NCBI GenBank assembly: GCA_963814275.1
Contig: CAWFCE010000002.1
Coordinates: 939,263 to 1,003,262 of the forward strand
Origin: Candidatus Parcubacteria bacterium
GTDB lineage: Bacteria > Patescibacteriota > Patescibacteriia > Patescibacteriales > UBA12075
DNA: 64,000 nt
Direction: 5' to 3'
Translations under genes and position numbers: made by a program
The notes under the pieces: generated by a model
What the model saw: the letters and a program-made list of their open reading frames with translations, nothing else
The model's database searches: none
Told to the model about the DNA's origin: nothing
Shown: positions 4,850-20,852 of the stretch, piece after piece
Numbering within the stretch: the first letter of the stretch is position 1
How the letters are laid out: every line of letters starts with the position of its first letter

Positions 4850-4894
4850 TTAAGAACGCAATCCCACCGCCCACAATCTCCCCCCAACCTACAA

Positions 4895-6036: not shown

Positions 6037-6873
6037 ATGATAAAAAAGCTAACATTTATTTCAGCGATCGTTTTTATGCTCGCTTTCTCGGTATTGCCGG
6101 CTTTAGCCTCCCTGGATCTTAATGTGGCGTGGAACGACAACCAGGCTGAAGTTGAGAATCAAGTATCGGCTCAGGCCAATACCGGCACGAATTATGCCGA
6201 CGGCAGTTACGGCGGCAGCGGCGGCAGCGGCGGCGATATCAATAATGGTCGTGTGCGTGATTATAAAGGGCCGGTTGTTTTTTCTGACAATCTGGACGCC
6301 CAAAGCTTCGATAATTTCAACGAAGGCGGCAGTGATGGCGATGTCAGGGACAGCTCAACCGGAAGCGGCGGTGCCGGTGGCAATGGCGCGGCTGGCGGGA
6401 CAGTCTATACCGGCGCGGCGGATGCCTCAGCCGGCGTCGACAACACGGTCAATTCCAACCTGACCGAGATCGAAGCCTGCCCGTGCGATACCGGTACCTG
6501 CGACCAGGTAATTGAAGATGGCGACGGTGAAACGCAAGTAGTTCCTGTCGAGGACCATTTCCTCGGATTATTCCCTCTGCGCGCTAATGTAGTCGTGAAC
6601 AGGAATTCGGGCGCATTGGCCAATGGTGTTGATGCCCAGGCGAATACCGGCGATAATATTGCCGATGGCAGCTATGGCGGACGCGGCGGACGCGGCGGTG
6701 ATATCTCCAATAGCGGAGAAGATGTAGATACGGCAACCACCGGCGACGGCGGCGCGGCCGGTAACGGCGGCGATGGCGGATTGGTAACTACCGATACGTC
6801 AACCTCCCAGGCCGGCGCGGTCAATCTGGTGAATTCCAATGTTACCCGCATCACCCGGACACAGCAACAGTAA
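6037..6873 (+). CDS. Secreted glycine-rich 'ANTG-repeat' protein (two modules), uncharacterised family
   Basis: 278 aa with signal peptide MIKKLTFISAIVFMLAFSVLPALA. Module 1 is NVAWNDNQAEVENQVSAQANTGTNYADGSYGGSGGSGGDI...VNSNLTEIEACPC. Module 2 is NVVVNRNSGALANGVDAQANTGDNIADGSYGGRGGRGGDI...VNSNVTRI. Paralogous to the C-terminal half of the next gene. Confidence 0.8.
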   Translation: MIKKLTFISAIVFMLAFSVLPALASLDLNVAWNDNQAEVENQVSAQANTGTNYADGSYGGSGGSGGDINNGRVRDYKGPVVFSDNLDAQSFDNFNEGGSDGDVRDSSTGSGGAGGNGAAGGTVYTGAADASAGVDNTVNSNLTEIEACPCDTGTCDQVIEDGDGETQVVPVEDHFLGLFPLRANVVVNRNSGALANGVDAQANTGDNIADGSYGGRGGRGGDISNSGEDVDTATTGDGGAAGNGGDGGLVTTDTSTSQAGAVNLVNSNVTRITRTQQQ

Positions 6874-7018
6874 TCGTATAATAGGCACGAATCCGGGGGG
6901 AGGGTTAATCCCTTCCCCCGGGTAGAAATAAAAATACATAAAGATAAGCAATAATACAAACTAAACCGTTAAAAAGGTCGAATCCTTAAAAAATTAAGAA
7001 GAAATAACCGATAACAAT

Positions 7019-8404
7019 ATGAAAAAAATCATTGCAATTACCGCGATGTTTTCCATGGCCGTATATTCACTGGCGATTTCTTTCCCGGTGTTGGCCCAGG
7101 AAGTAGGGCCTGAACCGAATCCGACGATCAGCGAAGCCTGTGGACTGGATATCGCTTTACTCCTGGATATGACCGGCAGTATCGAAAGCGCGGGCCAGAC
7201 GGCGACCGTTAAGAATGCGGCCAAAGGTTTTGTAGACGCGCTTTTGCCGTCAACCCCGACCTTGATCGGCTTGGTACAGTTTTCCAACGGAACCGCTTCG
7301 CAGGTCAATGACCTTTCGGGCGACGCTTCGACTATCGACAGCAATATCGATGGCTTGTCGGCGGCCGGGACGACGAACTGGCAGCAAGCGCTGCAGCTTG
7401 GCACGGCTATGCTCGAAGGCGGACTGGATCGCGACGATACCCAGCATCCCGATCTGATACTTATCATTACGGATGGCAATCCGAATGTACCGACCGATGA
7501 AACAGTTGCGCTCGATGCCGCTATTACCGCGGCCAATGCGGCGAAAACCTCTTCCGCGACATTGCCGATCAGGATCATGGCGATCGGGATAGGTGACGTG
7601 AATCTGTCCAATCTGGAGGATATTTCCGGTACCAACGTGAGCGACGGTACGAACATTACGATCAACACGGATGTGATAACCGGCAATTTCGACAATCTGG
7701 ACCAGTTCTTGTCCGATCTGGCCAGTACGATGTGCGAACAGCCTCAACCACCGACTAATTGCTGCAACCAGACGAACGAGGTTAATATGATTTTCAATTG
7801 GAATGAAGCGGAGGTGCAGAATGAGGTCAGCGCGCAAGCCAATACCGGCGGAAATTATGCCGGCGGCAGTTATGGCGGCAGTGGCGGCAGCGGCGGCGAT
7901 ATCAGGAACAGGGATGACGGAGAGGTGCGTGATAGCACGACCGGCAGCGGCGGCACGGGAGGAAACAGCGCGATCGGCGGAACGATCTATACCGGGGACG
8001 CCTCATCGAGCGCGTTCGTCGATAATACGGTCAATTCCAATCTGACCGAGATCCAGGGCTGTCCCTGCCCGTCATCTACGGACGAAGGCAGTGTATGCAG
8101 CGACTGCAGCTCGAATCCGTTGCATCTCAATGTGGTTGCCAACCACAATGATGCCAGAGTAGCCAGCCGGGTCTTGAGCCAGGCTGATACCGGTAATAAT
8201 GCAGCGGATGGCAGTTATGCCGGTAAAGGCGGCAGTGGTGGTGATATTTCCAATGGCGGCGAAGATGTAGATACGGCAGCAACCGGTGACGGCGGCGACG
8301 GCGGAACAGGCGGACCAGGCGGGTATGTATCGACCGGACGGTCAGTCTCGCGTTCCGGAGCGGTAAACGTGATCAACACCAATGTAACCAGATTATTGCG
8401 CTAA
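7019..8404 (+). CDS. Secreted vWA-domain protein fused to two 'ANTG-repeat' modules
   Basis: 461 aa with signal peptide ...SLAISFPVLAQE. vWA/MIDAS-type motifs DIALLLDMTGS, AAGTTNW and LILIITDGNPN. C-terminal half is NWNEAEVQNEVSAQANTGGNYAGGSYGGSGGSGGDI...NSNLTEIQGCPC plus NVVANHNDARVASRVLSQADTGNNAADGSYAGKGGSGGDI...NTNVTRLLR. Confidence 0.85.
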   Translation: MKKIIAITAMFSMAVYSLAISFPVLAQEVGPEPNPTISEACGLDIALLLDMTGSIESAGQTATVKNAAKGFVDALLPSTPTLIGLVQFSNGTASQVNDLSGDASTIDSNIDGLSAAGTTNWQQALQLGTAMLEGGLDRDDTQHPDLILIITDGNPNVPTDETVALDAAITAANAAKTSSATLPIRIMAIGIGDVNLSNLEDISGTNVSDGTNITINTDVITGNFDNLDQFLSDLASTMCEQPQPPTNCCNQTNEVNMIFNWNEAEVQNEVSAQANTGGNYAGGSYGGSGGSGGDIRNRDDGEVRDSTTGSGGTGGNSAIGGTIYTGDASSSAFVDNTVNSNLTEIQGCPCPSSTDEGSVCSDCSSNPLHLNVVANHNDARVASRVLSQADTGNNAADGSYAGKGGSGGDISNGGEDVDTAATGDGGDGGTGGPGGYVSTGRSVSRSGAVNVINTNVTRLLR

Positions 8405-8651
8405 CAATCGAAGGAGAATAGGCCGGTGCTTACCGGCCTTCCCGCCCGGGTAATGGAGGGAATATATCCGGGCGGGCCTTCCGGTAAGTCAATTAATAGG
8501 AATTGTAAAATTGGCGTACATTTTCATTTTAAATATGTTTCTTGCGGCTTATATCCACATCCGCGGATGCGACGCGGATCAAGACGCGGATTTTACGCGG
8601 ATTCACAATTCCCAATTTAATAATTGATTGGCCTGAAGGCAATAGTTATTT

Positions 8652-9440
8652 ATGAAGTATTACAATAATTTATTTTATATTTTATTAATACCTTTGGTGT
8701 TAGCGGGTTTAACGGGCCGGGCGGGTTTGGCAATGGCGGAAGTTGATTTGAATAATTTGCGGGCGGAAATTAACGGCCTGGCATCACAAATAGAATCTTC
8801 AAATACACCTAAGCGCGGTACCGGCAGCAATAATGTTAATATACAAAATAATGTTTCCGCGTCAGCGTCGACCGGCGGCAATCACGCGGCCGGCGGGCAG
8901 GTAGTGGAAGGCAAAGCCGAGAGTACCGTGAGCGCCAAGACCGTAATAAACGGGCAAACGGTCAATGACACCGACATCACCGATAGCAGCGGCGGCAATG
9001 CCAGCGCCGTTATCAACCAGCACATAACTGCAGATAACAATACCGCCTCGATTACGGCCGAAATCGAGATGAATGGGGAAAAAAATACGGAAGAAAAGAA
9101 AGTAGACTTGAAAACCGGAAATATCGAAACGGTTGCCCCGGCATTCGTTCCGGCCGCGGCAAAAACCACCGACACTGAAGCAACCGAGTCAATCGCCGAT
9201 GCTTACGTCGCGGCCACAGCGACGTCCGGAGAGCCTGTTATCCGGGACAGCCAAGAGTCAGAAGCGGTATGTTCGGCCACGGAAACCAGCACTTGCCAGT
9301 CCGATATCGCAAGTAATATCACCACGACAACCGATCAAGCCGGGACAGTAGGAAACACTAATGCTTTTTTGTCGGTCTGGCTGGCGATAGTCGATACGAT
9401 AAAGCAGGGGATCAATAAATTATTTTCCATATTCGCTTAA
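8652..9440 (+). CDS. Secreted protein with one degenerate ANTG-type motif (hypothetical)
   Basis: 262 aa with signal peptide ...LTGRAGLAMAE. NIQNNVSASASTGGNHAAGG resembles the N-x-V-S-A-x-A-N-T-G-x-N motif of the neighbouring genes. Same strand, tight spacing. Confidence 0.7.
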   Translation: MKYYNNLFYILLIPLVLAGLTGRAGLAMAEVDLNNLRAEINGLASQIESSNTPKRGTGSNNVNIQNNVSASASTGGNHAAGGQVVEGKAESTVSAKTVINGQTVNDTDITDSSGGNASAVINQHITADNNTASITAEIEMNGEKNTEEKKVDLKTGNIETVAPAFVPAAAKTTDTEATESIADAYVAATATSGEPVIRDSQESEAVCSATETSTCQSDIASNITTTTDQAGTVGNTNAFLSVWLAIVDTIKQGINKLFSIFA

Positions 9441-9463
9441 AAATCCTTAAATACGGCAAATAT

Positions 9464-12400
9464 ATGTCCACAACCTTCAATCTAAAACAGAAACCAATGC
9501 GTAAATACGCGGTTTATGCTCTGGTTTTTGTGTTTGTCTTCCAGTTAAGCGCCGGTTTTACTGTGTTGGCCGATGACGCGCCCGGAGACACAGTGATAGC
9601 TACCGGTGATGCCAGCGTCTCCCTGGGCGCCGGCAACGACATTAATCAAAACATTTATGCCAGTACCGGTCCGACCGGCAATACTACCGCCGACCCGGCA
9701 ATAGCCGATCCGCTGCCGGCAGACAACGGCAATACAGCTATCGATCCCACGGCTTCCCCGGACGCAAACCAGGACAGCCAGATAATTCCCGATCAGCAGA
9801 CAGCCGATGCAAATACCGACCCCGCAGCCCTTATTGCCGATACTATCGGCCAGAGCGGCACGGGTACGGGAGATCTGAATGTGCTAAACAACCAGAATAA
9901 CGGAGCAGTCGGCAACAACCTGGCCGGTACGAGTACGACCGGTACCAATGGTATCACGGGCAGCGACGGCAATACTTATATACTGACCGGCGATGCCGGG
10001 CTGGGGTCGGCAGTTGCCAACAATGTCAATGGCAATATCGCTTCGACTACCTGTCCGGATTGCCCCGGTGACGGTGCGACCACCACGACCCTGGTGGACA
10101 ATACAAACCTGGGCAGTACCACCAATGCCGTAAAGCTAACCGGCATTACCGGGGATAACCAGATCGCCACCAGCGGGGGCGATGCCGTAATTTCGACCGG
10201 CGACGCCAACATTATCAGCGTAATAGTCAATTTCATCAATACGAATATTTTCGGCAAAGGCGTCGAGTATTTCGTCAACGTCTGGAATAACGTAATGCAG
10301 AACCTGGATCTGTCCGGATACCAGGGCCAGGCGGGTCAGGCCGGCGATGTCGGCGCGTGCGAGGTGAATAATTGCCTGGTCTCGATAAACAATCTGAACA
10401 CCGGTGAAATCGCCAACGATGTCGTGATAGCCGCCAATACGGGCGGAAACGCGATCGCCTCGACCAGCGGCGCCGCCATCATCGAAACCGGGGATATCAA
10501 TATTACCAATGACGTATTGAATATCGCCAACCTGAACATTACCGGCAATGGCTGGTTCTTCGCCGTGGTGAATATTTTCGGTGAACTGAACGGCGACATT
10601 ATCCTGCCCCCTTATAATCAGGCGACCGGGACTAAAGCCACCACCAGCCTGGTCGAAAAACTGGCAACCAAGGGCACGGAAACAGCCGAAGTGATAATCA
10701 CCAATACGAACAACGCGGCTGTCGTCAACAGCTCGGATGTCCAGGCCAATACCGGCAGCAACGATATCGGCACCTCGAGCGATGCCGTCATCACGACCGG
10801 TAACGCGACTGTCCGTTCCCAGACTTTCAATTTGATAAACTACAACGTCTACGGCGATACCTGGAAATTCGCCCGGGTGAATATCTTCGGCGATTGGCAC
10901 GGCTTCATAAACGGCCTGCCGCCTGGATATAATTATGTGCAGGACGACGGCGGCATTACAGTGTATAGCGACATATTGGATGATCCGGCGCTGAATGCCC
11001 AGTTCGCCAAGCTCCTGGTGAATAATCAAAATAACGCCACCACGACCAATAGTATAACGATCGACGCCAGCACCGGAGATAACAGCATCCTGCACGCGGG
11101 CGGCGGGGCGACGATAGATACCGGCAATATAAATATTATGAACAGCCTCCTGAATTTCATCAATTCCAACTTCACCGGCGACAACTGGCAGTTCAGCATG
11201 ATCAATGTATTCGGCAAGTGGCAGGGTAATCTGGCCTTCGGCCAGCCCGATCTGTGGATCACGGAATCGATCAAATCACCGACGCCGGCAGTGGAAGGCA
11301 ACGGCATAACCTATACATTCCTGTACGGGAATAAAGGCGACTCAGCCGCGACCAACGTGCAATTGGAGGATATTTTCGATGATAGTTACATGAAGGCCGG
11401 ATCTTTGGCCGGCGGCATAGTAAATGGCAACAAGATCAGGTGGACGCTCGACAATATACCGCCCAACAGCCAGGGCAGCTTCAGCTACACGCTCAAAGTA
11501 AAAGACGATATTCCGGACGCAAGCGCGCAAGTCGCCAACCAGGTAAAAATATCCGGGACAGAAGGGGATAGGAACTATGACGACAATACGGCCGGCGGCA
11601 GTTTTACCGCCGAACACAGCCGCGCGCCATTGCGGAATGAAGCTTTCGATATCGCCAACCTGAGTGGCGGCGGCGAGGGGATGACAGCATTGTCGGTCAT
11701 CAAGACCAATGACGCGGCCGATATCGTCAATCCGGGTGATATCGTCAATTTCCATATCGTGGCCGACAACAACGGCGCGATTGCCGCCGAAGAAGTCTAT
11801 GTCATGGACAAAATGATCAATCTCGACACCAATGAAGTGATTAACGAATCATTCTGGAATCTGGGGACAGTGCAAAGCAATGAGGAAGTTATGATCGATT
11901 ATTCCCTCGAGATCACCAATGTGATCAAAACCGGCACCTATATCAACCAGGTGGTGGTGGAAGGCTGGGATCCGGCCCAGGGGATATACGCGACCGCTTA
12001 CGGTTCATCCAAAATAGAAGTGGTAAACGACGATTGGCACGAACCGGGACCGGCTAATATCGCCGTAACGCATACCCCGGCGGAGAGCCAGTCGCAGCCG
12101 GGCTCGACTGTTGACTATACGATAACCGTTACCAATAACGGCGGAGTCCAGGCCAAAGATTCTTATGTATCCGTAAGCCTGCCTAAAGGATTGACATTTT
12201 ACGGTGAAAATGGTATAAACTATAAACAATGGTACATTGAGCTTTTGAATCCGGGCGGTTTCCAGGATATAGAATTTACTGTCGCTTTGGATGATAATAT
12301 AGAGAATGGACTGTATACCAGCCAGGCAGTAGCCCGGGTCGGCAATCAGGTGACCGGTACAAACAACGCTACCCTGGCGGTTAAAAATTCCTTGCAGAAA

Positions 12401-12739
12401 AGCGGTGTAAGCGCCAACAATAAGGAACAGTCAAACGCAGTAGTCGCACAATCCGCCCCCAATACCAGCATCAGACGAACAATCCTAAGCGGTACAACCC
12501 CCGATAACAACGAAACGGGGGGCGCGGCGCAACAAACAGGCGACGTGGTCAGTGTTCCATCCGTAAAACCGGCGGTGGCGGCGGCGTTTGACGCGAATAA
12601 TGAAATGCCGGCGCCGGAAAATCCCTGGTACAACATGGCGAAATTGGGCCTGGCGCTGGTGCTACTATTGATATTATTCATTTTGGTATCGATCACGCAA
12701 AAATACATGAACGCCAGACCGAGGCAAATACGGACATAA
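9464..12739 (+). CDS. Giant surface protein: N-terminal array of long ANTG/TGD-type repeats, three DUF11-like repeats, C-terminal TM anchor
   Basis: 1091 aa with an N-terminal signal. Repeats include IAANTGGNAIASTSGAAIIETGDINITNDVLNIANLNITGNGWFFAVVNIFGELNGDI, VQANTGSNDIGTSSDAVITTGNATVRSQTFNLINYNVYGDTWKFARVNIFGDWHGFI and IDASTGDNSILHAGGGATIDTGNINIMNSLLNFINSNFTGDNWQFSMINVFGKWQGNL. DUF11-like segments include ITYTFLYGNKGDSAATNV and VDYTITVTNNGGVQA. C-terminal helix LGLALVLLLILFILVSI plus a basic tail. No LPXTG-type motif. Confidence 0.85.
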   Translation: MSTTFNLKQKPMRKYAVYALVFVFVFQLSAGFTVLADDAPGDTVIATGDASVSLGAGNDINQNIYASTGPTGNTTADPAIADPLPADNGNTAIDPTASPDANQDSQIIPDQQTADANTDPAALIADTIGQSGTGTGDLNVLNNQNNGAVGNNLAGTSTTGTNGITGSDGNTYILTGDAGLGSAVANNVNGNIASTTCPDCPGDGATTTTLVDNTNLGSTTNAVKLTGITGDNQIATSGGDAVISTGDANIISVIVNFINTNIFGKGVEYFVNVWNNVMQNLDLSGYQGQAGQAGDVGACEVNNCLVSINNLNTGEIANDVVIAANTGGNAIASTSGAAIIETGDINITNDVLNIANLNITGNGWFFAVVNIFGELNGDIILPPYNQATGTKATTSLVEKLATKGTETAEVIITNTNNAAVVNSSDVQANTGSNDIGTSSDAVITTGNATVRSQTFNLINYNVYGDTWKFARVNIFGDWHGFINGLPPGYNYVQDDGGITVYSDILDDPALNAQFAKLLVNNQNNATTTNSITIDASTGDNSILHAGGGATIDTGNINIMNSLLNFINSNFTGDNWQFSMINVFGKWQGNLAFGQPDLWITESIKSPTPAVEGNGITYTFLYGNKGDSAATNVQLEDIFDDSYMKAGSLAGGIVNGNKIRWTLDNIPPNSQGSFSYTLKVKDDIPDASAQVANQVKISGTEGDRNYDDNTAGGSFTAEHSRAPLRNEAFDIANLSGGGEGMTALSVIKTNDAADIVNPGDIVNFHIVADNNGAIAAEEVYVMDKMINLDTNEVINESFWNLGTVQSNEEVMIDYSLEITNVIKTGTYINQVVVEGWDPAQGIYATAYGSSKIEVVNDDWHEPGPANIAVTHTPAESQSQPGSTVDYTITVTNNGGVQAKDSYVSVSLPKGLTFYGENGINYKQWYIELLNPGGFQDIEFTVALDDNIENGLYTSQAVARVGNQVTGTNNATLAVKNSLQKSGVSANNKEQSNAVVAQSAPNTSIRRTILSGTTPDNNETGGAAQQTGDVVSVPSVKPAVAAAFDANNEMPAPENPWYNMAKLGLALVLLLILFILVSITQKYMNARPRQIRT

Positions 12740-12754
12740 TTAAATCGGACATAG

Positions 12755-13423
12755 ATGGCATACAAATTGGATTTGAATCCAAATAAAGATAAAAATAGAA
12801 TGCTGAAAATTCTGGTGCTCGCACTGGAATTTTTGGCTGTCGGATTGATTATCTATATTGTCGTGCTGCCGTTTTATCCGGCTCTCAAATACAAAGTCGT
12901 ATATGAGGGCCAGGCAGGTTTGCCGGAATCCGCCGATCGCGAGGTGATTAAGGAGCAAGTAGCGGATTTCCGCAACCACTTACCCGACAGCGCGTATGAC
13001 GTTTCCCCCAACCGGGTGATCATTCCCAAGATCGGGGTAAACGCGCCGATCGTGGTCACGCAGAATTCCGACTACGGACTATCACTCGGCTCCTGGCTGG
13101 TACCGGACACTTCCACCCCGGACAAAGGCGGCAATACGGTGCTGACCGGACACCGCTTCAAGTATTTGCCGCCGAACAACCTGACTTTCTATCTGCTGGA
13201 CAAACTGGCGCCGGGCGACCTGGTTTCGGTGGTATGGAAAGACAATGATTACCTGTATAAGGTCAGGGAACTTAAGGTCGTTGATCCGACGGAAGTATCG
13301 ATATTGAACCCGACCAGCGCCCCGGTGCTGACTTTGTATACTTGCACGCCGATCTATTCCACGGCCCAGCGGCTGGTAGTGATAAGCGACCTTATAGAAA
13401 CGACGAAACACGAAGAGATCTGA
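12755..13423 (+). CDS. Sortase family transpeptidase
   Basis: 222 aa with an N-terminal TM helix (ILVLALEFLAVGLIIYIVVLPF). Catalytic His in VLTGHR, catalytic Cys in LTLYTCTP, and a downstream Arg (AQRLVV). Confidence 0.85.
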   Translation: MAYKLDLNPNKDKNRMLKILVLALEFLAVGLIIYIVVLPFYPALKYKVVYEGQAGLPESADREVIKEQVADFRNHLPDSAYDVSPNRVIIPKIGVNAPIVVTQNSDYGLSLGSWLVPDTSTPDKGGNTVLTGHRFKYLPPNNLTFYLLDKLAPGDLVSVVWKDNDYLYKVRELKVVDPTEVSILNPTSAPVLTLYTCTPIYSTAQRLVVISDLIETTKHEEI

Positions 13424-13468
13424 CGAGTGCCATGGTCCATTGGCGGCACGGTCTGCGGGATTGTTTAA

Positions 13469-13504
13469 ATAAAAAACGGCTATGAAAGCCGTTATTTTTT
13501 TTAT
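13469..13504. terminator. Bidirectional terminator between convergent genes
   Basis: Stem AACGGCT / AGCCGTT, flanked by an A-run on the 5' side and a T-run on the 3' side. Sits between the sortase (+) and the hydrolase gene (-). Confidence 0.65.
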
Positions 13505-13553
13505 TTAAATTGTGTAAATTAGATTGTTATCAATGAATCCCTGAACTAATCCT

Positions 13554-14933
13554 TTATTGGCCAGAAGGAAATATCTCCGGCAATTTATCCCATAATTCCG
13601 GGGCAGAGGCCGGCATGTACCATTCCGTACCTTCGGCGCCGTATTTGAATATCGCGATAGCCAAAAGATTGCCGGTTTTTTTTGCAGCCGAAGCGTCATT
13701 GGTTAGCTTCGCCACGTTCGGTTTGAACCACAACGGCGGTTCGGTCCAGGCTCCCAGCGCGACGATCATTTGCGCCCGCGGATTGATCGCACGGACGGCA
13801 TTATGGGCGCGGGTAGCGACCGTTTGGACAAGGTCGGAATAATATTCGTCAACATTCGAATAGGCGTTGACCATCACGATATCGGCCACGCCAGGGCCGA
13901 ACGCGTTTCCTGTCCGGAAAAAATCACTGTCATAATCGTAGAAATACCAGCCGTTCATCCGAACCATGACCGGCCGCGACGGATCGGCTGCTTTGACGTC
14001 TTTATAGGCGGTTTGCAACTGTCCCAGGGTAATCGCCTGATCATGCGCCGCCCAGTCGTCGTCGTAGCGCTCTGCGTTCGGAAAATTTTGCCCATCTTCG
14101 TTCGAGATATCCCAGGCGTAAATAGCGGGGTGATAGGCCCATTTCTTGACCCAGGATTGCACTTTGTCTTTCTGCCACTCCGGTTTTTGGTCTGCGGAAT
14201 AGTTATCGTCGCAGGGATAACCCCATTCCGCTTCACCGGCGCCAGCCGGCATGATCACTTTAAGACCTGCATCTTTGGCGCTTTCCAGAAAACTAAGCAC
14301 GTCGGAACCACGGGCGCAAATATCAAAATTGCCCTCGATAATATCGAACCCGGCTTGTTTGATTCGGTTGAAGTCGGCGGGGGCGAGGCCGAAACGGTCG
14401 AGATAAGGTTCGCCCACGTCCTTGATCATCAACAGATACGGACGTGACGCTACGTCCATGACAGAATCTTCCGTGACTGGCTGGGTCGCAGTATCTTCAC
14501 TTCCCGTGGTTGGTATGATGGCGGATTCTTTTTCCGTTTCCGGAACCGGCGGCTGCACAGCCTCGGTTTCGGTCTTCTCTTCTGTATTGTCTGGCAATCC
14601 GGACAGAACTTCGTCTTCTTGACCGGACTCGACAGCCGGTTCGCTCTTTTCCGGGTCGTTTGAGGCGATTGACGGCTCAACACTTTCATCCATTGCGCTG
14701 GATGAGGCAAACAGGGAGGCTATTCCACTGGATGTGGCTAATGAATCCTCGGTATCAGCCACGCTAGCCGGCGTGTCCGCAATGACTGATGCGGAGGGCG
14801 GATCAACTGCCAAAATGGGCGGTACGCCATAAAATCGATGATAAAATAATTGGAATAGTAAACCCATCACTGTCAGGATTACCAGGGCGCTGATAAGTAA
14901 AAAAAGAAAATTCATTTTTAGGGTTTTGGACAT
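13554..14933 (-). CDS. Membrane-anchored secreted glycoside-hydrolase-like protein (TIM-barrel, clan GH-A-like)
   Basis: 459 aa with N-terminal anchor FLFLLISALVILTVMGLLF and a Ser/Glu/Thr-rich linker. Catalytic-type motif AIYAWDISNEDG (the Asn-Glu acid/base typical of GH5-like enzymes). A later hydrophobic strand ends in Glu (MIVALGAWTEPP). Family assignment not verified. Confidence 0.55.
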   Translation of the reverse strand: MSKTLKMNFLFLLISALVILTVMGLLFQLFYHRFYGVPPILAVDPPSASVIADTPASVADTEDSLATSSGIASLFASSSAMDESVEPSIASNDPEKSEPAVESGQEDEVLSGLPDNTEEKTETEAVQPPVPETEKESAIIPTTGSEDTATQPVTEDSVMDVASRPYLLMIKDVGEPYLDRFGLAPADFNRIKQAGFDIIEGNFDICARGSDVLSFLESAKDAGLKVIMPAGAGEAEWGYPCDDNYSADQKPEWQKDKVQSWVKKWAYHPAIYAWDISNEDGQNFPNAERYDDDWAAHDQAITLGQLQTAYKDVKAADPSRPVMVRMNGWYFYDYDSDFFRTGNAFGPGVADIVMVNAYSNVDEYYSDLVQTVATRAHNAVRAINPRAQMIVALGAWTEPPLWFKPNVAKLTNDASAAKKTGNLLAIAIFKYGAEGTEWYMPASAPELWDKLPEIFPSGQ

Positions 14934-14964
14934 ATTCTAATTGAGCGTATAATATGCGTGATTA

Positions 14965-17613
14965 TTAATCCGTGAGTTTGTCCAATTGGACATTGTCGAT
15001 GTATATTTCTCCGGTCGAATTCGCGACCAGATAAGTCTGTATCGAAGCCGTAAACACCATGGCTGATGTGGGCGTATAATCGTAGGTTACGATGCCGCTT
15101 TGGCCGATGGTTTGGTAGCCCAGCCATTTGCCGGATAACCAGTTATTGTTAAGGTCATATTCATCGACATACAACCCGGCTTCACCGGAAATCTGGCCGG
15201 TAGCATCGACAAAGGCGCTGACATTATATTGGCTCGAACTGGCAACCAGGGCCTGGGGACTGAAGAGATGGGCTGATGAGCCGCCGCCGGTCATTTTGAT
15301 ATTGGCATCGACCGTCGGTTCTACCCCCCGGCTGGTGGTAGAATATTGTACTTGTTCGCTGTTCCTTACCGTCCAGCCATCGGCCAAGCCGGCGCTGAAA
15401 TCCGAGTTCGGAAGGGGCGGTTCCGCCGGTTCCGGCTCGGGGGCCAGAGCGGCCATTTCGACATTATCGATATAAGCTTCGCCTGAGGCCAGGGCGGTCA
15501 GATAGATCTGGACCGACGCGGAATACACTTGGGCCGAACTTGGTTGATAGCTGTATTCCAGGCTGTTTACCCCGCTCAGCGGGGCATAGCCCAGCCATTT
15601 GCCGGAAATCCAGTTGCCGGCATCATTATATTCGTCCAGGTAGCAGCCGGCCTCGCCGCTGGTCAGGTCCACTGTGTCAATATGCGCCTTAACGGCATAC
15701 TTTTCCGTACTGTCGACAAGGGCTTTCGGGCTGAAAAGGTGAGCACTGGAGTCACTGCCGGTCATTTTGACGCTGGCATCGGCCGTCGGGTCGACACCGC
15801 GGCTGGTAGTGGCCAGGGTAACTTGTTCGGGCCGGTTCGTATGCCAGCCGTCGCTGATACCATTGCCGAAATCGCTGTTGGCGAAAGGCAGGGCCGCCGG
15901 AAGGGGTTCCGGCGCGGTTATGTTAAGGTCGACATTATCGAGATAGACGGCGCCGGTGGAATTGGCTGTCATGTAGACCTGTACGGACGCGGACATTACC
16001 AGGTCGTTAGTGGGCTGGTACTTGAACGCGAGATTACCGGCATAACCGATGGGCTGGTAACCCAGCCATTTCCCGGAGACCCAGGCCTCGGCTTGGTCAT
16101 ATTCATCCATATACAATCCTGTTTCGCCGGCTGTCTGGTCGGTAGCGTCGATATAAGCGGTAACATCATAACTCTTAGCGCTGTCAACCTGAACCTGCGG
16201 ACTGAAAACATGAGCGGCCAGCGCCCCGCCATCCATTTTTATATTTGCCTCGGCGGTCGGTAAAATCCCGCGGCTGGTGGTAGAAAACGCCACTTGGGCG
16301 GTATTGTCGGTGGTCCAGCCTTCGGCCACGCCGCCGGAAAAATCACTGTTTTGCAGCGGCGGATATGGCAGTAGGGAAGCTATCGGATTCGGGGTAGGCA
16401 AGGGTGCGCCTTCTCCCATCTCGAAGAAATCGGCGTTATCGACGTAGACATAGCCGACTGAACCGGCGGCAAGATAGATGCGCAAGCCGACCGAGGCGAT
16501 ATCCGCGCTTGCGGGCTGGTAAGCGTATGATTCATCGATCACGTTATTAGGGGAACTGGTCCCCAGGAATTTCCAGGAGATCCAATCGCCGGCGTTATTG
16601 TATTCATCGAAGTAATAACCGAATTCCCCGCTTTGCAGATTTACGGTGTTATTGAAGATCCGCACTCCATACTCTGTGGTCGAGCTGACTGATACACTGG
16701 GGCCGTATAGATAAGCACTGGCCGCGCCTCCCATGAGCTCAACCGAAGATGCCGGGGTCGGTACGGCCCCCCGGCCGCCTCCGTCGACAAAAACCTGGGC
16801 TGGAGTCGGCGTAGTCCAGCCATCCGCCAGGCCGTTATTGAAATCGGAATTGGGCAGCAAACTGTCTTTCATATTCAGGGTTTCGGCGATCGATTTGGTT
16901 TTTATCCCGTAGGAATCGAGCAAAGCCATCAGGGCTTCCAGGTCGGCAGTCGGCCAGGAATATGTGTCGTCAATGGCCACGGTCGGCAGGATTTCGTGGA
17001 ATACTATGATCAGCCAATAATTGTTGGCAGTCGCTTCCTGGATCCAGCTTTCCACTTCAGCCAGAGTGGTCTGATTGGTGATCTGCTGGACATAGAGCAA
17101 ATACTCGTTGTAAGGCCAGGCGTTGTAACCGATATCATGATATCCCCGATGATTTTCGAAATAGGACGCGATATCCGCAATTACCGTATTGTCATAAGCC
17201 CCGAATGGAGTGGCGAAGCTGACCGGCTGCAATCCGTGGGCGGCCAGAAGTTCGTAGTTATCCCGGACCTGTGCTTCGATCTCTTCCGGGGTCAGGAGGG
17301 GCAATTCCGAGTGGTCGACCGAATGTCCGCCTACTTCCCAGCCTTCCTGGACCATGGAGACTAGGTTGTTCCAGGTCATATAGCCTTCCGTGCCGATCAG
17401 TCCGCTCGGAACGTAGATCGTCGCTTTTTGGCCGGCTGCCTTGATGATCGGTGCGGCATATTGGTATTGCGATAGCGCGGCATCGTCAAAGGTCAGGGTG
17501 ATCACCGGTTCCGGGGCGGCGAAATCGATCTTTCCGATCGTAAACGAGCTAAGGATAGTGACGACCAATAAAGTGGCTTTTATTTTGTTGGGGAAATGCG
17601 ATTTTTTTGCCAT
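14965..17613 (-). CDS. Polysaccharide deacetylase (CE4 / NodB homology domain) with four C-terminal CBM-like repeats
   Basis: 882 aa with a signal peptide. NodB motifs TLTFDDA and GGHSVDH. These are followed by four about 155-aa repeats, each starting [LP]PNSDF-x-G-[LIV]-[AS]-[DE]-GW and ending [VI]-Y-[IV/L]-DN-[VA]. Confidence 0.85.
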   Translation of the reverse strand: MAKKSHFPNKIKATLLVVTILSSFTIGKIDFAAPEPVITLTFDDAALSQYQYAAPIIKAAGQKATIYVPSGLIGTEGYMTWNNLVSMVQEGWEVGGHSVDHSELPLLTPEEIEAQVRDNYELLAAHGLQPVSFATPFGAYDNTVIADIASYFENHRGYHDIGYNAWPYNEYLLYVQQITNQTTLAEVESWIQEATANNYWLIIVFHEILPTVAIDDTYSWPTADLEALMALLDSYGIKTKSIAETLNMKDSLLPNSDFNNGLADGWTTPTPAQVFVDGGGRGAVPTPASSVELMGGAASAYLYGPSVSVSSTTEYGVRIFNNTVNLQSGEFGYYFDEYNNAGDWISWKFLGTSSPNNVIDESYAYQPASADIASVGLRIYLAAGSVGYVYVDNADFFEMGEGAPLPTPNPIASLLPYPPLQNSDFSGGVAEGWTTDNTAQVAFSTTSRGILPTAEANIKMDGGALAAHVFSPQVQVDSAKSYDVTAYIDATDQTAGETGLYMDEYDQAEAWVSGKWLGYQPIGYAGNLAFKYQPTNDLVMSASVQVYMTANSTGAVYLDNVDLNITAPEPLPAALPFANSDFGNGISDGWHTNRPEQVTLATTSRGVDPTADASVKMTGSDSSAHLFSPKALVDSTEKYAVKAHIDTVDLTSGEAGCYLDEYNDAGNWISGKWLGYAPLSGVNSLEYSYQPSSAQVYSASVQIYLTALASGEAYIDNVEMAALAPEPEPAEPPLPNSDFSAGLADGWTVRNSEQVQYSTTSRGVEPTVDANIKMTGGGSSAHLFSPQALVASSSQYNVSAFVDATGQISGEAGLYVDEYDLNNNWLSGKWLGYQTIGQSGIVTYDYTPTSAMVFTASIQTYLVANSTGEIYIDNVQLDKLTD

Positions 17614-17633
17614 AGTATGTTCGAAATATTTAA

Positions 17634-17858
17634 TTAAGGTAATTTTTCCGGATTGTCGAAATCGGAAAAATATTTTTTTAAATTAATAAAAAAACGGGAC
17701 AAAGTCGCCGTTAAGAAAAATAACGAAATCAAGGTCAGGATCATCAGGCCCCAGACCACGATAACATGGGTCGTGTCATGCAAATAAAAGGCCACCGCGA
17801 ACGAGCCAACGGGGATGGTAAAACCCGATATAACCGTACCGCCATGAAAATTAAACAT
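17634..17858 (-). CDS. Small two-TM membrane protein (position equivalent to IcaD/PgaD)
   Basis: 74 aa with two hydrophobic helices (ISGFTIPVGSFAVAFYL and VIVVWGLMILTLISLFFL). Wedged between the GT2 synthase and the deacetylase on the same strand. Confidence 0.55.
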   Translation of the reverse strand: MFNFHGGTVISGFTIPVGSFAVAFYLHDTTHVIVVWGLMILTLISLFFLTATLSRFFINLKKYFSDFDNPEKLP

Positions 17859-17947
17859 AATATTAGGGTAATTTGAATAATAATTTAATGAAACCTTATA
17901 TTAATTCACAGAAAAATGCAAGTAGACGATAACACTGCCGATAGATC

Positions 17948-19171
17948 TTATCTTTGCCGGGTGCCCCAGCTTTCCGAATAACCCAATATCCCGAAGATAC
18001 GGTCAAAACCATGCTTAAGCGGAGAAAACGCCCGGGACTTCCTCACTAGCCAGGTAAACGTATTGCAAAAGAAATAAAAGACATAACTGCCGAAGAGGAC
18101 CAGGGTCAGAACATTGGCATAAATGAATTCCGGAAAAATAGTCAGGCGGATCAGCCAGTCAAGCCAATCCTTTTCCCGGTAAAAACGCATGAACCAGATC
18201 TGGAAACTGAACCAGACCAATACCTGCAATACCGATATTTCCACGATCAGAAAGGGGATCAACGGGTTCACGCTTCCCGGGTGACCGACAAATATGAACG
18301 ATAAAACTATAAAAAAGAGGGAAATAAGGAACAAAGAATGTCCGATCAGGTCCTGAATGACAGAATGCCAGTTTTTGACCTGGGAGATAACGTAAAGGCC
18401 GCCGACATTCCAGCGCGCCCTTTGCCGCCAAAGGTTGGGGAACGTTTCCGGCACGAAGGTCCAGGCATACGAAAACGGAGCCAGCCGGACATGCCAGCCC
18501 CGGGCCTTGATCCTCGCCGTTATTTCGTAGTCTTCGATCAGATGCCGTTCGGTAAACAAGCCGGCCTGCCGGAGGGCTTCAGTACGGAAAGCGGAAAGCA
18601 TGCCGTGCATTACCAACGGTCCCCGGAAAAAGCCTTCGTCCGCCAGCCGGGTGCCATTAAAGCCCAAGTATTCCAAACCCTGCAAACGGGTCAGCAGATT
18701 CTTGTTTTTGTTTATTACCCGGCATTGGGAGCATACCACGCCGATCCGTTCGTCTTCGTGCAGATTTTTGACCAGGTTTTTGATCGTGTTCCGCGAGATG
18801 ATCACGTCGTCATCCAGGGTCAGTATCACATCCGGACGTTTGCGTTTGTCCTGATTCAGGATATCGGTCAGGGCGAAATTGATCGCGGCCGCTTTCAGCT
18901 TGTTTTCCGGCGTGCGCAATATGGTCACGCGGCTGGACAAAGTATCGATTTTTTTGAAAATACGGTGTCCCTCATCATGCTCTAACGGGGTCGAATCGTC
19001 CACCACAAAAATCCTGACGTTGTTGTTCCAGCGTAAAATATCGCCGACCAGACGGTAAGTCAAGTCTCCCGGTTTGTATGATGGGATGATGGCGGTAATT
19101 TTCAGTCTTGGCCTCAGATCCAGGACGCAGAAATTCAAAGGTAAGAATAGGTTTTTGACAATTGAGCGCAT
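17948..19171 (-). CDS. Processive family-2 glycosyltransferase (IcaA/PgaC/NodC-like polysaccharide synthase)
   Basis: 407 aa. GT2 motifs VVDDST, TLDDDV, IEDYEIT and the processive-synthase motif QRARW. C-terminal multi-TM region. Confidence 0.8.
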   Translation of the reverse strand: MRSIVKNLFLPLNFCVLDLRPRLKITAIIPSYKPGDLTYRLVGDILRWNNNVRIFVVDDSTPLEHDEGHRIFKKIDTLSSRVTILRTPENKLKAAAINFALTDILNQDKRKRPDVILTLDDDVIISRNTIKNLVKNLHEDERIGVVCSQCRVINKNKNLLTRLQGLEYLGFNGTRLADEGFFRGPLVMHGMLSAFRTEALRQAGLFTERHLIEDYEITARIKARGWHVRLAPFSYAWTFVPETFPNLWRQRARWNVGGLYVISQVKNWHSVIQDLIGHSLFLISLFFIVLSFIFVGHPGSVNPLIPFLIVEISVLQVLVWFSFQIWFMRFYREKDWLDWLIRLTIFPEFIYANVLTLVLFGSYVFYFFCNTFTWLVRKSRAFSPLKHGFDRIFGILGYSESWGTRQR

Positions 19172-19403
19172 TTATTGAATGTTAATTAAGCGTGGGCATA
19201 AAAATGCCAAATGTTCATTAGACATTTGGAATTCCTTATAATATAATTAATATTCCTTTAAGCAAATTTGATTTTGCAACTTATCATATTCTAAGAACGT
19301 TGTCAACAGAAATTTCCAAATTCAAAACAATAATAGCCACGCCGCATAAATGACAAATTTTAGCTAATGTGGTATAATCTTATCAGACTGAAAAATTGAA
19401 TAT

Positions 19404-20852
19404 ATGGCAAAAAACAAACTAAAAAGTAAATTTAGGATTTTTAGGTTATTTTCGCTTTTTGCGGCGGGGATAATCGATATATTCAAAATATTCGGCCGCA
19501 GAAATAAAGAGACCCCTGTCCATAAATTCAGCGCGATACTCAGGGAAGAGGAGCGCGAAGTCGGCAAACTCGTGTCAGGAAGGGAAGATTGGGGCCGGTT
19601 CCGGCGCCATTCATTTTCCTTGCTTCATGACTATTTCATACCGCATCCCGGCAACGGGCATCGGCCGAAAATCCTGCATTCCAAGTCGCTCATAACGATC
19701 GCGGCGCTTTTGCTGGTGGTCAAAGCGGTTACCGTGGGTTATCTGTTTCTGGCCTATCCCCATACTGCCTATCTTTCCGCTGAAGTGGTCAGCCGGGTTT
19801 TGGAGCTGGTCAACCGGGATCGGGTAAGCGCGGGCGTGCCGGCTCTCACCATGAACGAGACCCTGTCGTCTTCCGCTTTGGCCAAAGCCAATGACCTGAT
19901 CGTAAATGACTACTTCGCCCATACGGGACCGGACGGCAAACGCCCCTGGGACTGGATCGACCGCGGCAAATACCAGTATTTGTATGTCGGGGAGAATCTG
20001 GCGATGAATTTCACTTCGGCGGAGTCGGTCCATCAGGCTTTGATGAATTCCCCGTCGCATAAGAAGAATATACTGAACGAGCGTTACCAGGATGTCGGCA
20101 TCGCTATGGTAACCGGCGATATCGACGGCAAACCGACCAATGTGCTGGTCGAGCATTTTGCCGTCAGGAAAACCAGTGTCCCGGCCCTGGCTGTAGTCCC
20201 GGATACGTCCGCGGGAACCACTAAAGCCTCGAGCCTGGCTTCGGTCCCGGCGGCCAGCGAACCGGTCAGCGTGTTGGCCGAAGATTCCGGCAAAACCGCC
20301 CCGCTAACGGTTGATAGACCGGACACAAGCCCGTTGCCGCCCGATAACAGCCAGGATGCTTTGGCCGGCAATAACCTAACCGGCGATACGGCTGAGCCCG
20401 GATCGGTACCGCCCGCGAAGCCCGCGGAAGAAGAGGCACCGGCCGAAACTCTGGAAATCGTCAGGGAAAATCCGCCCGCCAAACTCGCCGCCAATAATGC
20501 CAGCGGCACCGCCGCGGCAATACAGCGGGAAGCAGTAGCGGCTGAGCCGGCAACTCCTGACCCGTCATTGGAAAGCGATATAGCCGCCGCTCCGTTAACG
20601 GTCCCCAATCCGGTCGACGACAATATGATCCTTACCGCCAAGCGCGTAAGGGTAGTAAACTATTTCTTCTTGGCCGTACTGGCATTGATGGTAGTCGCGT
20701 TGGCGATAAATATATTCATCCGCATCGAGATCCAGCACAAGCATGTAATCATCCAGACCATGATATTGATCCTTTTTATTGCCGGTCTTGCATTCTTCAA
20801 ATTCCATATGCTGGAAAGCGGGGATATCATGATTTCCTTGCTGGGACAATGA
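19404..20852 (+). CDS. Membrane-anchored CAP/SCP (YkwD-like) domain protein
   Basis: 482 aa. A TM helix precedes a CAP-domain signature (NDYFAHTGPDGKRPWDWI ... GENLA ... MNSPSHKKNIL ... VGIAMV). Followed by a Pro/Ala-rich region and two C-terminal TM helices. Confidence 0.75.
   Translation: MAKNKLKSKFRIFRLFSLFAAGIIDIFKIFGRRNKETPVHKFSAILREEEREVGKLVSGREDWGRFRRHSFSLLHDYFIPHPGNGHRPKILHSKSLITIAALLLVVKAVTVGYLFLAYPHTAYLSAEVVSRVLELVNRDRVSAGVPALTMNETLSSSALAKANDLIVNDYFAHTGPDGKRPWDWIDRGKYQYLYVGENLAMNFTSAESVHQALMNSPSHKKNILNERYQDVGIAMVTGDIDGKPTNVLVEHFAVRKTSVPALAVVPDTSAGTTKASSLASVPAASEPVSVLAEDSGKTAPLTVDRPDTSPLPPDNSQDALAGNNLTGDTAEPGSVPPAKPAEEEAPAETLEIVRENPPAKLAANNASGTAAAIQREAVAAEPATPDPSLESDIAAAPLTVPNPVDDNMILTAKRVRVVNYFFLAVLALMVVALAINIFIRIEIQHKHVIIQTMILILFIAGLAFFKFHMLESGDIMISLLGQ

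Follow-up and report, generated by a model that had tools for sequence, protein, structure and literature searches.

A putative synthase-dependent exopolysaccharide operon conserved in Patescibacteria, with a proposed polymerize-deacetylate-trim mechanism

INTRODUCTION

In staphylococci, which have no outer membrane, the icaADBC locus directs the synthesis of poly-β-1,6-N-acetylglucosamine (PNAG), or polysaccharide intercellular adhesin (PIA), and in the pga, psl, bcs, and pel systems dedicated hydrolases trim the polymer. Here we describe a four-gene block on the minus strand of a 64,000-nucleotide stretch of DNA from a Candidatus Parcubacteria bacterium (GenBank assembly GCA_963814275.1, contig CAWFCE010000002.1; hereafter, the window). 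The block encodes a family 2 glycosyltransferase (GT2), a 74-amino-acid (aa) membrane protein, a family 4 carbohydrate esterase (CE4) with carbohydrate-binding module (CBM)-like repeats, and a fourth protein that resembles a glycoside hydrolase (GH). With moderate confidence, we interpret it as a synthase-dependent exopolysaccharide operon specific to Patescibacteria, the product of which would be polymerized, deacetylated, and trimmed. Members of the Patescibacteria, abundant but mostly uncultured, are thought to live in attachment to other cells, and to our knowledge little is known about their surface polymers.

The block shares with icaADBC a gene order in which a GT2 of ~410 aa comes first, then a small membrane protein bearing two hydrophobic segments, and then an extracellular CE4. 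Also shared are the lack of an outer membrane component and probably the substrate, UDP-N-acetylglucosamine (UDP-GlcNAc); PgaC_IcaA is also the best curated family of the window GT2. It differs in that this GT2 scores only a quarter of the family cutoff, has no N-terminal transmembrane helix, and has WGTR at its C terminus; in that the small protein belongs to another, unannotated family (as compared with PgaD, not IcaD); in that the CE4 proteins of this system have a membrane anchor and 1 to >5 CBM-like modules; and in that the block has an extra protein resembling the hydrolases of clan GH-A and no IcaC. With pgaABCD, it has in common a synthase with a small transmembrane partner, a CE4, a hydrolase activity predicted to act on the product, and a GT2 catalytic domain that aligns with PgaC. 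However, PgaC has two N-terminal transmembrane helices and the window GT2 has none, PgaD is unrelated to the 74-aa protein, and the fourth protein is a distant TIM-barrel match of the PgaB GH153 domain rather than a homolog by sequence. The PgaA porin is also absent from the block; by Pfam and NCBIfam, no gene in or next to it matches the PgaA porin or IcaC family. Because the GT2 is under the family cutoff, the topology differs, the partner and hydrolase are unrelated, and neither IcaC nor PgaA is present, the window system appears to work like ica/pga, and like NodBC in its chemistry, without being a member of ica/pga.

Two other groups of systems are relevant to this comparison. The class I hyaluronan synthases (streptococcal, Chlorella virus, and vertebrate), NodC, and the chitin synthases are the best structural matches of the GT2, and they would share with it the use of UDP-GlcNAc and the coupling of polymerization to translocation in a single-subunit-type architecture; as in the bacterial hyaluronan synthase, WGTR stands near the C terminus. 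The window GT2 differs from them in its weak sequence similarity (E = 1e-5 to 1e-7), in having IEDYE in place of GEDR, in lacking N-terminal transmembrane helices, and in being accompanied always by a separate small protein, which is 74 aa long in the window. Nothing in the window system points to a second sugar such as the hyaluronan synthases use. The rhizobial NodB-NodC pair resembles the block in that a GT2 and a CE4 are encoded together, in its GlcNAc chains, and in the canonical NodB motif order of the CE4. However, NodB works in the cytoplasm, on a short oligomer. Because the window CE4 has CBM-like repeats and, at its N terminus, a signal or anchor, we propose that it acts on an extracellular polymer instead.

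RESULTS AND DISCUSSION

A conserved gene block in Patescibacteria

The ORF listing of the window confirms the basic claim of an initial annotation, made from the letters of the window, that four open reading frames (ORFs) lie co-directionally on the minus strand within positions 13554 to 19171. In gene order, they are separated by 89, 20, and 31 bp. Because of these short gaps, a hairpin 3' of the last gene, and a promoter-like region upstream of the first, we read the four genes as one operon. All of the motifs quoted in that annotation are present: DDST (residue 58), DDD (residue 120), EDYEIT (residue 213), and QRARW (residue 250) in the GT2; TFDD (residue 41) and HSVDH (residue 97) in the CE4; and WDISNE (residues 274 to 279) in the fourth protein. 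The assignment of the first and third genes as GT2 and CE4 is borne out by Pfam (Glyco_trans_2_3, E = 2e-23; Polysacc_deac_1, E = 7e-20).

In all, 258 homologs of the GT2 were detected. Every named one is from Patescibacteria (Kaiserbacteria, Parcubacteria, Adlerbacteria, and others), at 45 to 63% identity, and the taxonomy of all close homologs indicates that the host is a reduced-genome patescibacterium, which had initially been raised only as a condition; the contig that bears the window is 1.27 Mb long. With the window's proteins as queries, we compared 34 loci, which remained after duplicate removal from 32 found in a scan of species-representative genomes and 3 found by exact lookup. A small ORF lies directly downstream of the GT2 gene in all 34 (recognized in L005, L016, L026, and L032 by three-frame reading), and the 74-aa ORF is therefore conserved. 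A CE4 gene with CBM-like repeats lies downstream of the GT2 gene on the same strand in 17 loci. The fourth gene is present in 9 loci, invariably after the CE4 gene and never without it (9 of 9, with 17 loci CE4 positive and 17 CE4 negative). Thus, the full block, which is the version that the window has, does recur in related genomes (9/34), with the predicted order of synthase, small transmembrane protein, deacetylase, and hydrolase. This arrangement is not due to chance, since the same order recurs in diverged genomes with GT2s 45 to 58% identical to that of the window. We conclude that the core consists of the GT2 and the micro-protein, and that the CE4 and the hydrolase form an optional module of fixed order.

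The genes that neighbor the core in CE4-negative loci are diverse but linked to the cell surface: a sugar epimerase gene with a second GT2 gene, a Wzx-like flippase gene, type IV pilus genes, a subtilase gene, and a gene for a GH5/GH39-like hydrolase. In one such locus (L017, positions 9362 to 11679), genes for T2SSE and T2SSF, the ATPase and platform of a type IV pilus or type II secretion system, directly follow the GT2/small-protein pair. In another locus (L032, positions 8001 to 16783), which appears to be a duplicated or expanded version in a 1.3-Mb genome, two GT2 copies (45% and 44% identical to that of the window) flank two tandem CE4 genes rich in CBM-like repeats. Public labels of the four proteins are absent or generic ("hypothetical protein," "glycosyltransferase family 2 protein," "polysaccharide deacetylase family protein"), and each of the five window proteins that we looked up is a singleton at 90% identity. 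The full-text literature that we searched, in which most subscription-journal papers are not covered, holds no account of the cluster in Patescibacteria, also known as the candidate phyla radiation (CPR).

The GT2 resembles processive synthases

The GT-A domain of the GT2 spans residues 24 to 262 (nucleotides 18386 to 19102), and no transmembrane helix lies N-terminal to it. The motifs DDxT, DDD, HLIEDYE, and QRxRW are invariant in 20 GT2 homologs (alignment A1). In the AlphaFold2 (AF2) model, which has a mean predicted local distance difference test (pLDDT) score of 77, the GT-A domain and the QRARW-bearing helix are followed by C-terminal helices at residues 268 to 293, 304 to 330, 336 to 344, 346 to 378, and 380 to 395. 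This is the arrangement of the processive, membrane-integrated GT2 class, with D, DxD, ED, and Q(Q/R)xRW in a GT-A domain and interface and transmembrane helices after it. At the scan threshold, hydropathy places hydrophobic segments at residues 270 to 302, 303 to 328, and 340 to 359 of this C-terminal module. By the same method, the window GT2 has no N-terminal and three C-terminal hydrophobic segments, Escherichia coli PgaC has two and three, and NodC has three at the C-terminal end.

In BcsA, the gating-loop motif of the processive class is FxVTxK. The window GT2 carries WGTR at residues 402 to 405, and this motif is conserved across the family, with W402 and T404 invariant in the 20 homologs and conservation of at least 90% at G403 and R405. 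Class I hyaluronan synthases have WGTR as the motif of their gating loop (PMC11750622; bioRxiv 10.64898/2026.02.21.705424). Its Trp, Gly, and Arg are needed for the activity of the Chlorella virus hyaluronan synthase, CvHAS (PMC11750622), and in the streptococcal enzyme it is located in the C-terminal tail (bioRxiv 10.64898/2026.02.21.705424). We regard the WGTR of the window GT2 as a candidate gating loop based on motif identity, position, and this literature rather than on an alignment. A search of the C-terminal 80 residues against the Protein Data Bank (PDB) gave chance matches only, and the last residues of the model, which include WGTR, have a pLDDT of 42. Of the two other C termini compared, that of NodC has WLSR near its end and that of PgaC ends with RARWVSPDRG. 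The initial description of the GT2 was right about its catalytic motifs and overlooked both the C-terminal WGTR and the absence of N-terminal transmembrane helices.

If the block were a true ica/pga system, it would encode a PgaC/IcaA ortholog making poly-β-1,6-GlcNAc, equivalents of IcaD/PgaD and IcaB/PgaB, and a detached PgaB C-terminal hydrolase. We consider this unlikely, even though several results are in keeping with it. Among NCBIfam models, PgaC_IcaA scores best on the window GT2 (108.4 bits), ahead of XrtG-associated GT2 (56 bits), NodC (43 bits), HpnI (35 bits), and CelA (22 bits). PgaC_IcaA is first and NodC second in all 20 GT2 family members, with all scores subthreshold and a best E value of 5e-34. 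The window GT2 is nearer to E. coli PgaC (BLASTP, 22% identity over 246 aa, E = 9e-23, 86 bits) than to Sinorhizobium meliloti NodC (60 bits; NodC was located by tblastn and ORF listing in pSymA). Its catalytic-base motif, IEDYE, has the xEDxx form of PgaC (TEDID) and not the GEDR of NodC, and the gene order parallels icaA-icaD-icaB. In contrast, 108.4 bits is about a quarter of the curated cutoff of the PgaC_IcaA equivalog (TIGR03937; 422.3 bits), which places the GT2 outside that family, and the N-terminal helices of PgaC are absent from the window GT2, just as the WGTR C terminus is absent from PgaC. The earlier comparison of this GT2 to ica/pga members is thus not supported at the level of homology or membership.

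A β-1,4-linked GlcNAc polymer (chitin, converted to a chitosan-like product by the CE4) or a GlcNAc heteropolymer is an alternative that we likewise think unlikely, and to about the same degree. It would require a GT2 of the NodC/hyaluronan synthase/chitin synthase type, a CE4 like NodB or chitin deacetylases, and a fourth protein like GH5-type chitosanases. Foldseek matches the GT2 model best to hyaluronan synthases (E = 1e-13; template modeling score [TM-score] up to 0.64) and then to PcManGT, BcsA, and chitin synthases. WGTR is common to hyaluronan and chitin synthases, and NodC has WLSR at the corresponding place in its C terminus; among curated families, NodC comes second throughout; and there is a weak Pfam match to Chitin_synth_2. 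However, the NodC score is well under that of PgaC_IcaA, and where NodC, hyaluronan synthases, and chitin synthases typically have GEDR, the window GT2 has IEDYE. Taken together, these comparisons suggest that the GT2 is a mosaic, in which the base motif is of the PgaC type, the gating loop and size are like those of bacterial hyaluronan synthase and NodC, and N-terminal helices are lacking. By its WGTR and the absence of N-terminal transmembrane helices, the architecture of the synthase appears closer to hyaluronan synthases and NodC than to PgaC.

It is also conceivable, if very improbable, that the GT2 is not a polymer synthase but is directed at lipid or protein, as a GT21-like glycolipid synthase or a PcManGT-like enzyme, and that the CE4 and the hydrolase are unrelated surface enzymes. 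PcManGT is a minimal cellulose-synthase-like mannosyltransferase and not a polymer synthase. It is the best PDB profile match of the GT2 by sequence (E = 2e-9) and also ranks fourth by structure, and by sequence the GT2 family is about equally far from PcManGT, BcsA, chitin synthases, and hyaluronan synthases. In addition, Glyco_transf_21 (GT21) scores 74 bits in Pfam, HpnI is among the NCBIfam matches, the D,D,D,QxxRW signature also occurs in ceramide glucosyltransferases, and the CE4 and the hydrolase are absent from half of the loci. Against this, the WGTR gating loop is known, in the literature consulted, from processive synthases, and the Foldseek alignments to hyaluronan synthases (~430 to 460 columns for a query of 407 residues) include the C-terminal part of the GT2. 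Moreover, the GT2 gene is read together with genes for extracellular polysaccharide-acting enzymes in constant order in 17 of the 34 loci, and the GH5/GH39-like hydrolase gene mentioned above adjoins the pair in a CE4-negative locus. The claim that the GT2 is a processive synthase is supported, since hyaluronan, cellulose, and chitin synthases are its best structural matches and PgaC_IcaA fits it best among the curated families.

Outside Patescibacteria, the nearest plasmid-borne relatives match in the GT domain only, at 28 to 33% identity and 58 to 60% coverage, and no plasmid-borne homolog covers the membrane module. One of them, a Streptomyces protein of the MatB type annotated as bifunctional polysaccharide deacetylase/glycosyltransferase family 2 (28.8% identity over the GT domain), also combines a CE4 with a GT2. 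It differs from the window system in being one fused polypeptide rather than separate genes and in not sharing the membrane module (coverage of 58%).

The 74-aa protein is a probable obligatory partner of the GT2

Hydropathy finds two hydrophobic segments in the 74-aa protein, a weak one at residues 8 to 26 and a strong one at residues 28 to 60, which agrees with its initial description as a protein with two transmembrane segments. No Pfam or NCBIfam family matches it. Members of its family share an N-terminal N(F/L)xGGT motif and a C-terminal (C/S)R(Y/F)xIN(Y/L)(R/K) motif. We rejected homology to PgaD: BLASTP against E. coli PgaD gives no alignment at E ≤ 100, which is a further point against a true ica/pga system. 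We conclude that the protein is likely an obligatory partner of the GT2 and that its likeness to PgaD is one of functional analogy only. Because of the topology counts and its universal co-occurrence with the GT2, we propose that the micro-protein may supply the transmembrane helices that the GT2 lacks.

A GlmU-GT2 fusion points to UDP-GlcNAc as the donor

One GT2 homolog, P0099, is 49% identical to the window GT2 over the whole GT2 and has a 255-residue N-terminal extension. This extension matches the uridyltransferase half of GlmU (positions 2 to 242 of 452 of TIGR01173) with 207 bits and an E value of 5e-61; nucleotidyltransferase families other than GlmU reach 89 bits at most. The acetyltransferase half of GlmU is not part of the fusion. 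The fusion gene stands in the same kind of block (L039), in which it is accompanied by a 63-aa ORF and by genes for a CE4 of 1,180 aa, in which CBM_4_9 matches faintly, and for a homolog of the fourth protein (378 aa; 67% identity to the window protein). Because a domain of an enzyme that makes UDP-GlcNAc is fused to the synthase within the same block, UDP-GlcNAc is the suggested donor. Although it is one case only, the fusion is the strongest available pointer to a polymer built of GlcNAc, and it independently supports the initial suggestion that a GlcNAc-type polymer is plausible. Based on these sequences, the polymer is probably GlcNAc based. The fusion is compatible with any GlcNAc polymer, including a β-1,4-linked one.

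The CE4 carries four CBM-like repeats

The CE4 domain is well supported by Pfam (PF01522, 71.7 bits against a cutoff of 23.1), and hydropathy predicts a signal or anchor segment at residues 11 to 29. When the segments matched by tblastn were aligned, D43, D44, H97, H101, P136, R156, and H206 were invariant in 20 of 20 family members. These include the Asp-His-His metal triad, the base Asp, and the acid His of CE4 enzymes (D43, D44, H97, H101, and H206). The best PDB matches by sequence are CE4 deacetylases, one of them labeled xylanase/chitin deacetylase. The best curated family is HfsH, the holdfast deacetylase (57 bits), and the NodB model scores 16 bits. Only a stretch of 38 residues around TFDD resembles PgaB (E = 4e-4). 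These comparisons, made with PgaB and not with IcaB, give no support to a CE4 specifically of the PgaB/IcaB type, and the short match to PgaB and the ranking of HfsH count against a true ica/pga system. The canonical NodB motif order of the domain is in accord with a β-1,4-linked polymer.

The four CBM-like repeats reported initially are real. They were delimited by their NSDF motif and then aligned; they are 150 to 167 aa long, are 38 to 56% identical in pairwise comparisons, and have Pro-rich linkers between them. Self-BLASTP of the CE4 protein returned the identity match only. Their similarity to CBM_4_9 (PF02018) is weak (21.4 bits, E = 3.5e-4, under the gathering threshold of 25.9); several repeat homologs have precomputed PF02018 annotations. 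Most of the detected homologs that contain the domain are CE4 proteins. One of these is actinobacterial and some have dockerins, and a CE4-CBM protein occurs in Kocuria (P0256). Copy number varies from about 1 to >5 per CE4 between genomes. In a more distant arrangement, on an 804-kb contig (L037, positions 5096 to 14522), a GH10 gene, a dockerin-bearing CE4 gene, a second CE4 gene, a 60-aa ORF, a sortase gene, and a gene for a 454-aa GT2 lie together; the GH10 and the dockerin suggest that some CE4-CBM relatives act in the degradation of polysaccharide and not in its biosynthesis.

Some of these observations would also fit a polymer that contains no GlcNAc, e.g., an O-acetylated β-glucan, mannan, or xylan-like glycan, in which case the CE4 would be an O-acetyl esterase and the fourth protein an enzyme of the β-mannanase/glucanase type. 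CE4 includes acetylxylan esterases, one PDB match carries the xylanase label, a distant CE4-CBM relative adjoins the GH10 gene, and CBM4/9 modules often bind glucans and xylans. We find a non-GlcNAc polymer improbable, since a GlmU-type fusion occurs within the same gene block and the families that the GT2 matches best, PgaC/IcaA and NodC, are GlcNAc transferases, with CelA at 22 bits.

The fourth protein is a candidate glycoside hydrolase at the edge of clan GH-A

The fourth protein has a transmembrane anchor at residues 1 to 32, a low-complexity linker of ~130 aa, and a barrel domain at residues 166 to 459 (nucleotides 13557 to 14438). It had been described as a secreted, hydrolase-like TIM-barrel protein. 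The likeness to hydrolases is upheld, and the predicted N-terminal anchor and linker indicate that it is tethered rather than simply secreted. AF2 models the domain confidently (pLDDT of 94.5) as a (β/α)8 barrel, in keeping with the claimed fold. The N-E motif N278-E279 follows strand 4 (112 to 116 in barrel-domain numbering) and E398 follows strand 7 (229 to 235); E279 is present in 40 of 40 sequences and E398 in 39 of 40. The pair of Glu residues that the initial annotation had named as a point to verify is thus present, in the positions expected for a retaining enzyme of clan GH-A, and E279 and E398 are candidate catalytic residues. In the public gene call (P0121, 453 aa), the start lies 6 codons inside the longest ORF of 459 aa.

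Foldseek matches the barrel to GH164 β-mannosidase, GH5 mannanases, and GH2 enzymes, with TM-scores of 0.53 to 0.64 overall; Cwp19, PslG, and the PgaB C-terminal domain (rank 34, TM-score of 0.53) rank lower. The nearest structures are those that a non-GlcNAc polymer would predict, but matches this weak place the protein only near clan GH-A. It is a point against a β-1,4-linked polymer that no chitin-specific family, whether GH18, GH19, CBM5/12, or lytic polysaccharide monooxygenase (LPMO), is encoded within the block. No Pfam family matches the fourth protein at threshold, the only subthreshold match being to a GH2 TIM barrel. When 1.84 billion cluster representatives were searched with a profile, only 59 reached E ≤ 0.001, and the weakest of these carry GH2_C, GH5, GH42, DUF4434, or GH72 signatures. 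Based on the model and these searches, the fourth protein appears to represent a small, isolated, unclassified family at the edge of clan GH-A.

The presence of the PgaB domain among the structural matches is in keeping with a true ica/pga system. However, the fourth protein is structurally nearer to GH164, GH5, and GH2, and BLASTP against PgaB residues 310 to 672 (GH153) gave no significant alignment. For these reasons, we rejected the fourth gene as a detached PgaB C-terminal domain; the hydrolase function does seem to reside in a separate gene, as had been proposed, but in one from an unrelated GH-A-like family. The protein has in common with the hydrolases of other exopolysaccharide operons (PslG of GH39, BcsZ of GH8, PgaB-C of GH153, PelA, and Sph3/Ega3) that a glycoside hydrolase is encoded within a biosynthetic operon, and two of these, PslG and PgaB-C, are among its structural matches. 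It differs in belonging to none of their families. One family member of 619 aa (P0279) is fused to a GH114 domain. GH114 is the endo-α-1,4-polygalactosaminidase family (Ega3 type), and this fusion hints at a link with cationic hexosamine polymers.

Proposed mechanism and significance

In the mechanism that we propose, the cytoplasmic GT-A domain of the GT2 would take a UDP-sugar, most likely UDP-GlcNAc, and polymerize it into a chain. The chain would be β-linked because GT2 enzymes invert the configuration at the anomeric center. It would cross the membrane through a pore formed by the C-terminal helices of the GT2 and the two hydrophobic segments of the 74-aa partner, which may replace the N-terminal transmembrane helices that PgaC, NodC, and hyaluronan synthases have in one polypeptide, and the C-terminal WGTR loop would gate the active site. 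Outside the cell, the membrane-tethered CE4 may grip the polymer with its four CBM-like modules and strip off some of the acetyl groups. The membrane-tethered TIM-barrel enzyme, with its two glutamates, would then cut or trim the polymer, possibly at deacetylated regions, because its gene depends strictly on the presence of the CE4. The role of the product is likely that of a surface or adhesive layer because of the adjacent sortase and adhesin genes.

Several points weigh against this interpretation. The GT2 is far under every curated family cutoff, and its best PDB profile match by sequence is an enzyme that does not make a polymer. With three hydrophobic segments after the GT domain, it is not settled that the topology would put WGTR on the cytoplasmic side. 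The GlmU fusion was found only once, with two member sequences. The CE4 is absent from half of the related loci, so that deacetylation is not obligatory for the core system; the CE4 family also contains O-acetyl esterases; and a distant CE4-CBM relative adjoins a xylanase gene of GH10. Sequence alone cannot give the sugar or the linkage, and β-1,6 and β-1,4 linkages are about equally open. A glycan without GlcNAc and a nonpolymerizing glycosyltransferase are less likely.

A more far-reaching version of the exopolysaccharide interpretation can be put forward tentatively, as something we rather doubt. In it, the lineage as a whole would have a minimal synthase in two pieces, a catalytic subunit like hyaluronan synthase or NodC that lacks N-terminal transmembrane helices and whose pore is completed in trans by a micro-protein of 60 to 90 aa from an undescribed family. 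This would be joined by a multi-CBM deacetylase and by the first representative of a new glycoside hydrolase family that acts specifically on deacetylated polymer. The product would be a cationic GlcNAc/glucosamine adhesive layer, used by ultra-small episymbionts beside sortase-anchored adhesins to attach to hosts or surfaces.

No concept is overturned by this operon, since synthase-dependent systems with a deacetylase and a hydrolase are already well known; what we propose is a known principle realized with distant or unrelated parts, an ica/pga-like way of working in an ultra-small bacterium. The analysis defines a conserved, testable gene set, with a core of synthase and micro-protein, optional deacetylase-CBM and hydrolase modules, and CAP-domain, sortase, and adhesin genes as frequent neighbors. 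In many Paceibacteria/Parcubacteria and related lineages, its product is probably an exopolysaccharide based on GlcNAc. The gene set offers a compact two-polypeptide model for coupled polymerization and translocation and a candidate new glycoside hydrolase family. It also opens the surface polysaccharide of a major uncultured lineage to experiment, since enrichment cultures could be probed with lectins, with PNAG antibody, or for sensitivity to dispersin B or chitinase.

Surroundings of the operon

The features of the operon and its flanks are listed in Table 1. The hairpin sits between the end of the fourth gene and a convergent sortase gene, and the intergenic region on the other side is the probable promoter region of both the operon and the divergent CAP-protein gene upstream. 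Four hydrophobic segments, two of which are C-terminal, are predicted in the CAP protein, which also has a long linker rich in Ser, Pro, and Ala.

Table 1. Positions of the operon, its parts, and adjacent features in the window, and of a GlmU-GT2 fusion in a related locus
Feature	Position	Strand	Size or residues	Basis
GT2 membrane synthase	17948-19171	-	407 aa	ORF listing, Pfam, NCBIfam, AF2, Foldseek
C-terminal membrane module of GT2	17987-18370	-	residues 268-395	model secondary structure, hydropathy
C-terminal WGTR motif, candidate gating loop	17957-17968	-	residues 402-405	alignment, literature
Small membrane protein	17634-17858	-	74 aa	ORF listing, recurrence, hydropathy
CE4 deacetylase protein	14965-17613	-	882 aa	ORF listing, Pfam
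CE4 (NodB-type) domain	16864-17514	-	residues 34-250	Pfam Polysacc_deac_1
Four tandem CBM4/9-like repeats in CE4 protein	14968-16857	-		repeat alignment
Repeat 1	16357-16857	-	residues 253-419	alignment
Repeat 2	15886-16356	-	residues 420-576	alignment
Repeat 3	15415-15885	-	residues 577-733	alignment
Repeat 4	14968-15414	-	residues 734-882	alignment
Fourth protein, glycoside-hydrolase-like, membrane-anchored	13554-14933	-	459 aa	ORF listing, AF2, Foldseek
Bidirectional terminator-like hairpin	13475-13493		7-bp stem	stem, then T-runs on both strands
AT-rich divergent intergenic region	19172-19403		232 bp	promoter-like sites on both strands, consensus matches only
CAP/YkwD-domain membrane protein	19404-20852	+	482 aa	Pfam CAP, E = 4e-14; NCBIfam YkwD, E = 6e-29
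GlmU-GT2 fusion P0099	L039 (JGI 3300005077 contig), 203-2275			profile match

Genes of these kinds recur near related loci. Counted over 33 loci, a CAP/YkwD-domain gene lies within about 6 kb downstream of the GT2 gene, on the same strand, in 11; it stands directly after the small gene in Kaiserbacteria and after the fourth gene in L005 and L007. A DUF11 surface protein is encoded nearby in 9 of the 33, and DUF11 proteins or sortases are found next to the GT2 in many related loci. In three loci (L027, L028, and L030), a sortase gene stands between the GT2 and CE4 genes, and in L029 a sortase gene follows the GT2 gene and the contig ends before any CE4 gene could be seen. In the window and its relatives together, the surroundings encode sortase, DUF11/SpaA/VWA surface proteins, type IV pilus components, and other surface functions.

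Positions 407 to 13423 of the window, on the plus strand, encode three DUF11 proteins (606, 654, and 1,091 aa, the second also with a SpaA-like domain), a VWA-domain protein (461 aa), two unannotated proteins, and the sortase (12755 to 13423). This run looks like a sortase-dependent pilus or adhesin island that ends at the convergent end of the operon. Nearly all long ORFs of the window are on the plus strand, and the operon is among its few minus-strand units. Cumulative GC skew climbs steadily over positions 1 to 64000, and the last 6 kb (58 to 64 kb) have 35 to 44% GC, compared with about 50% elsewhere.

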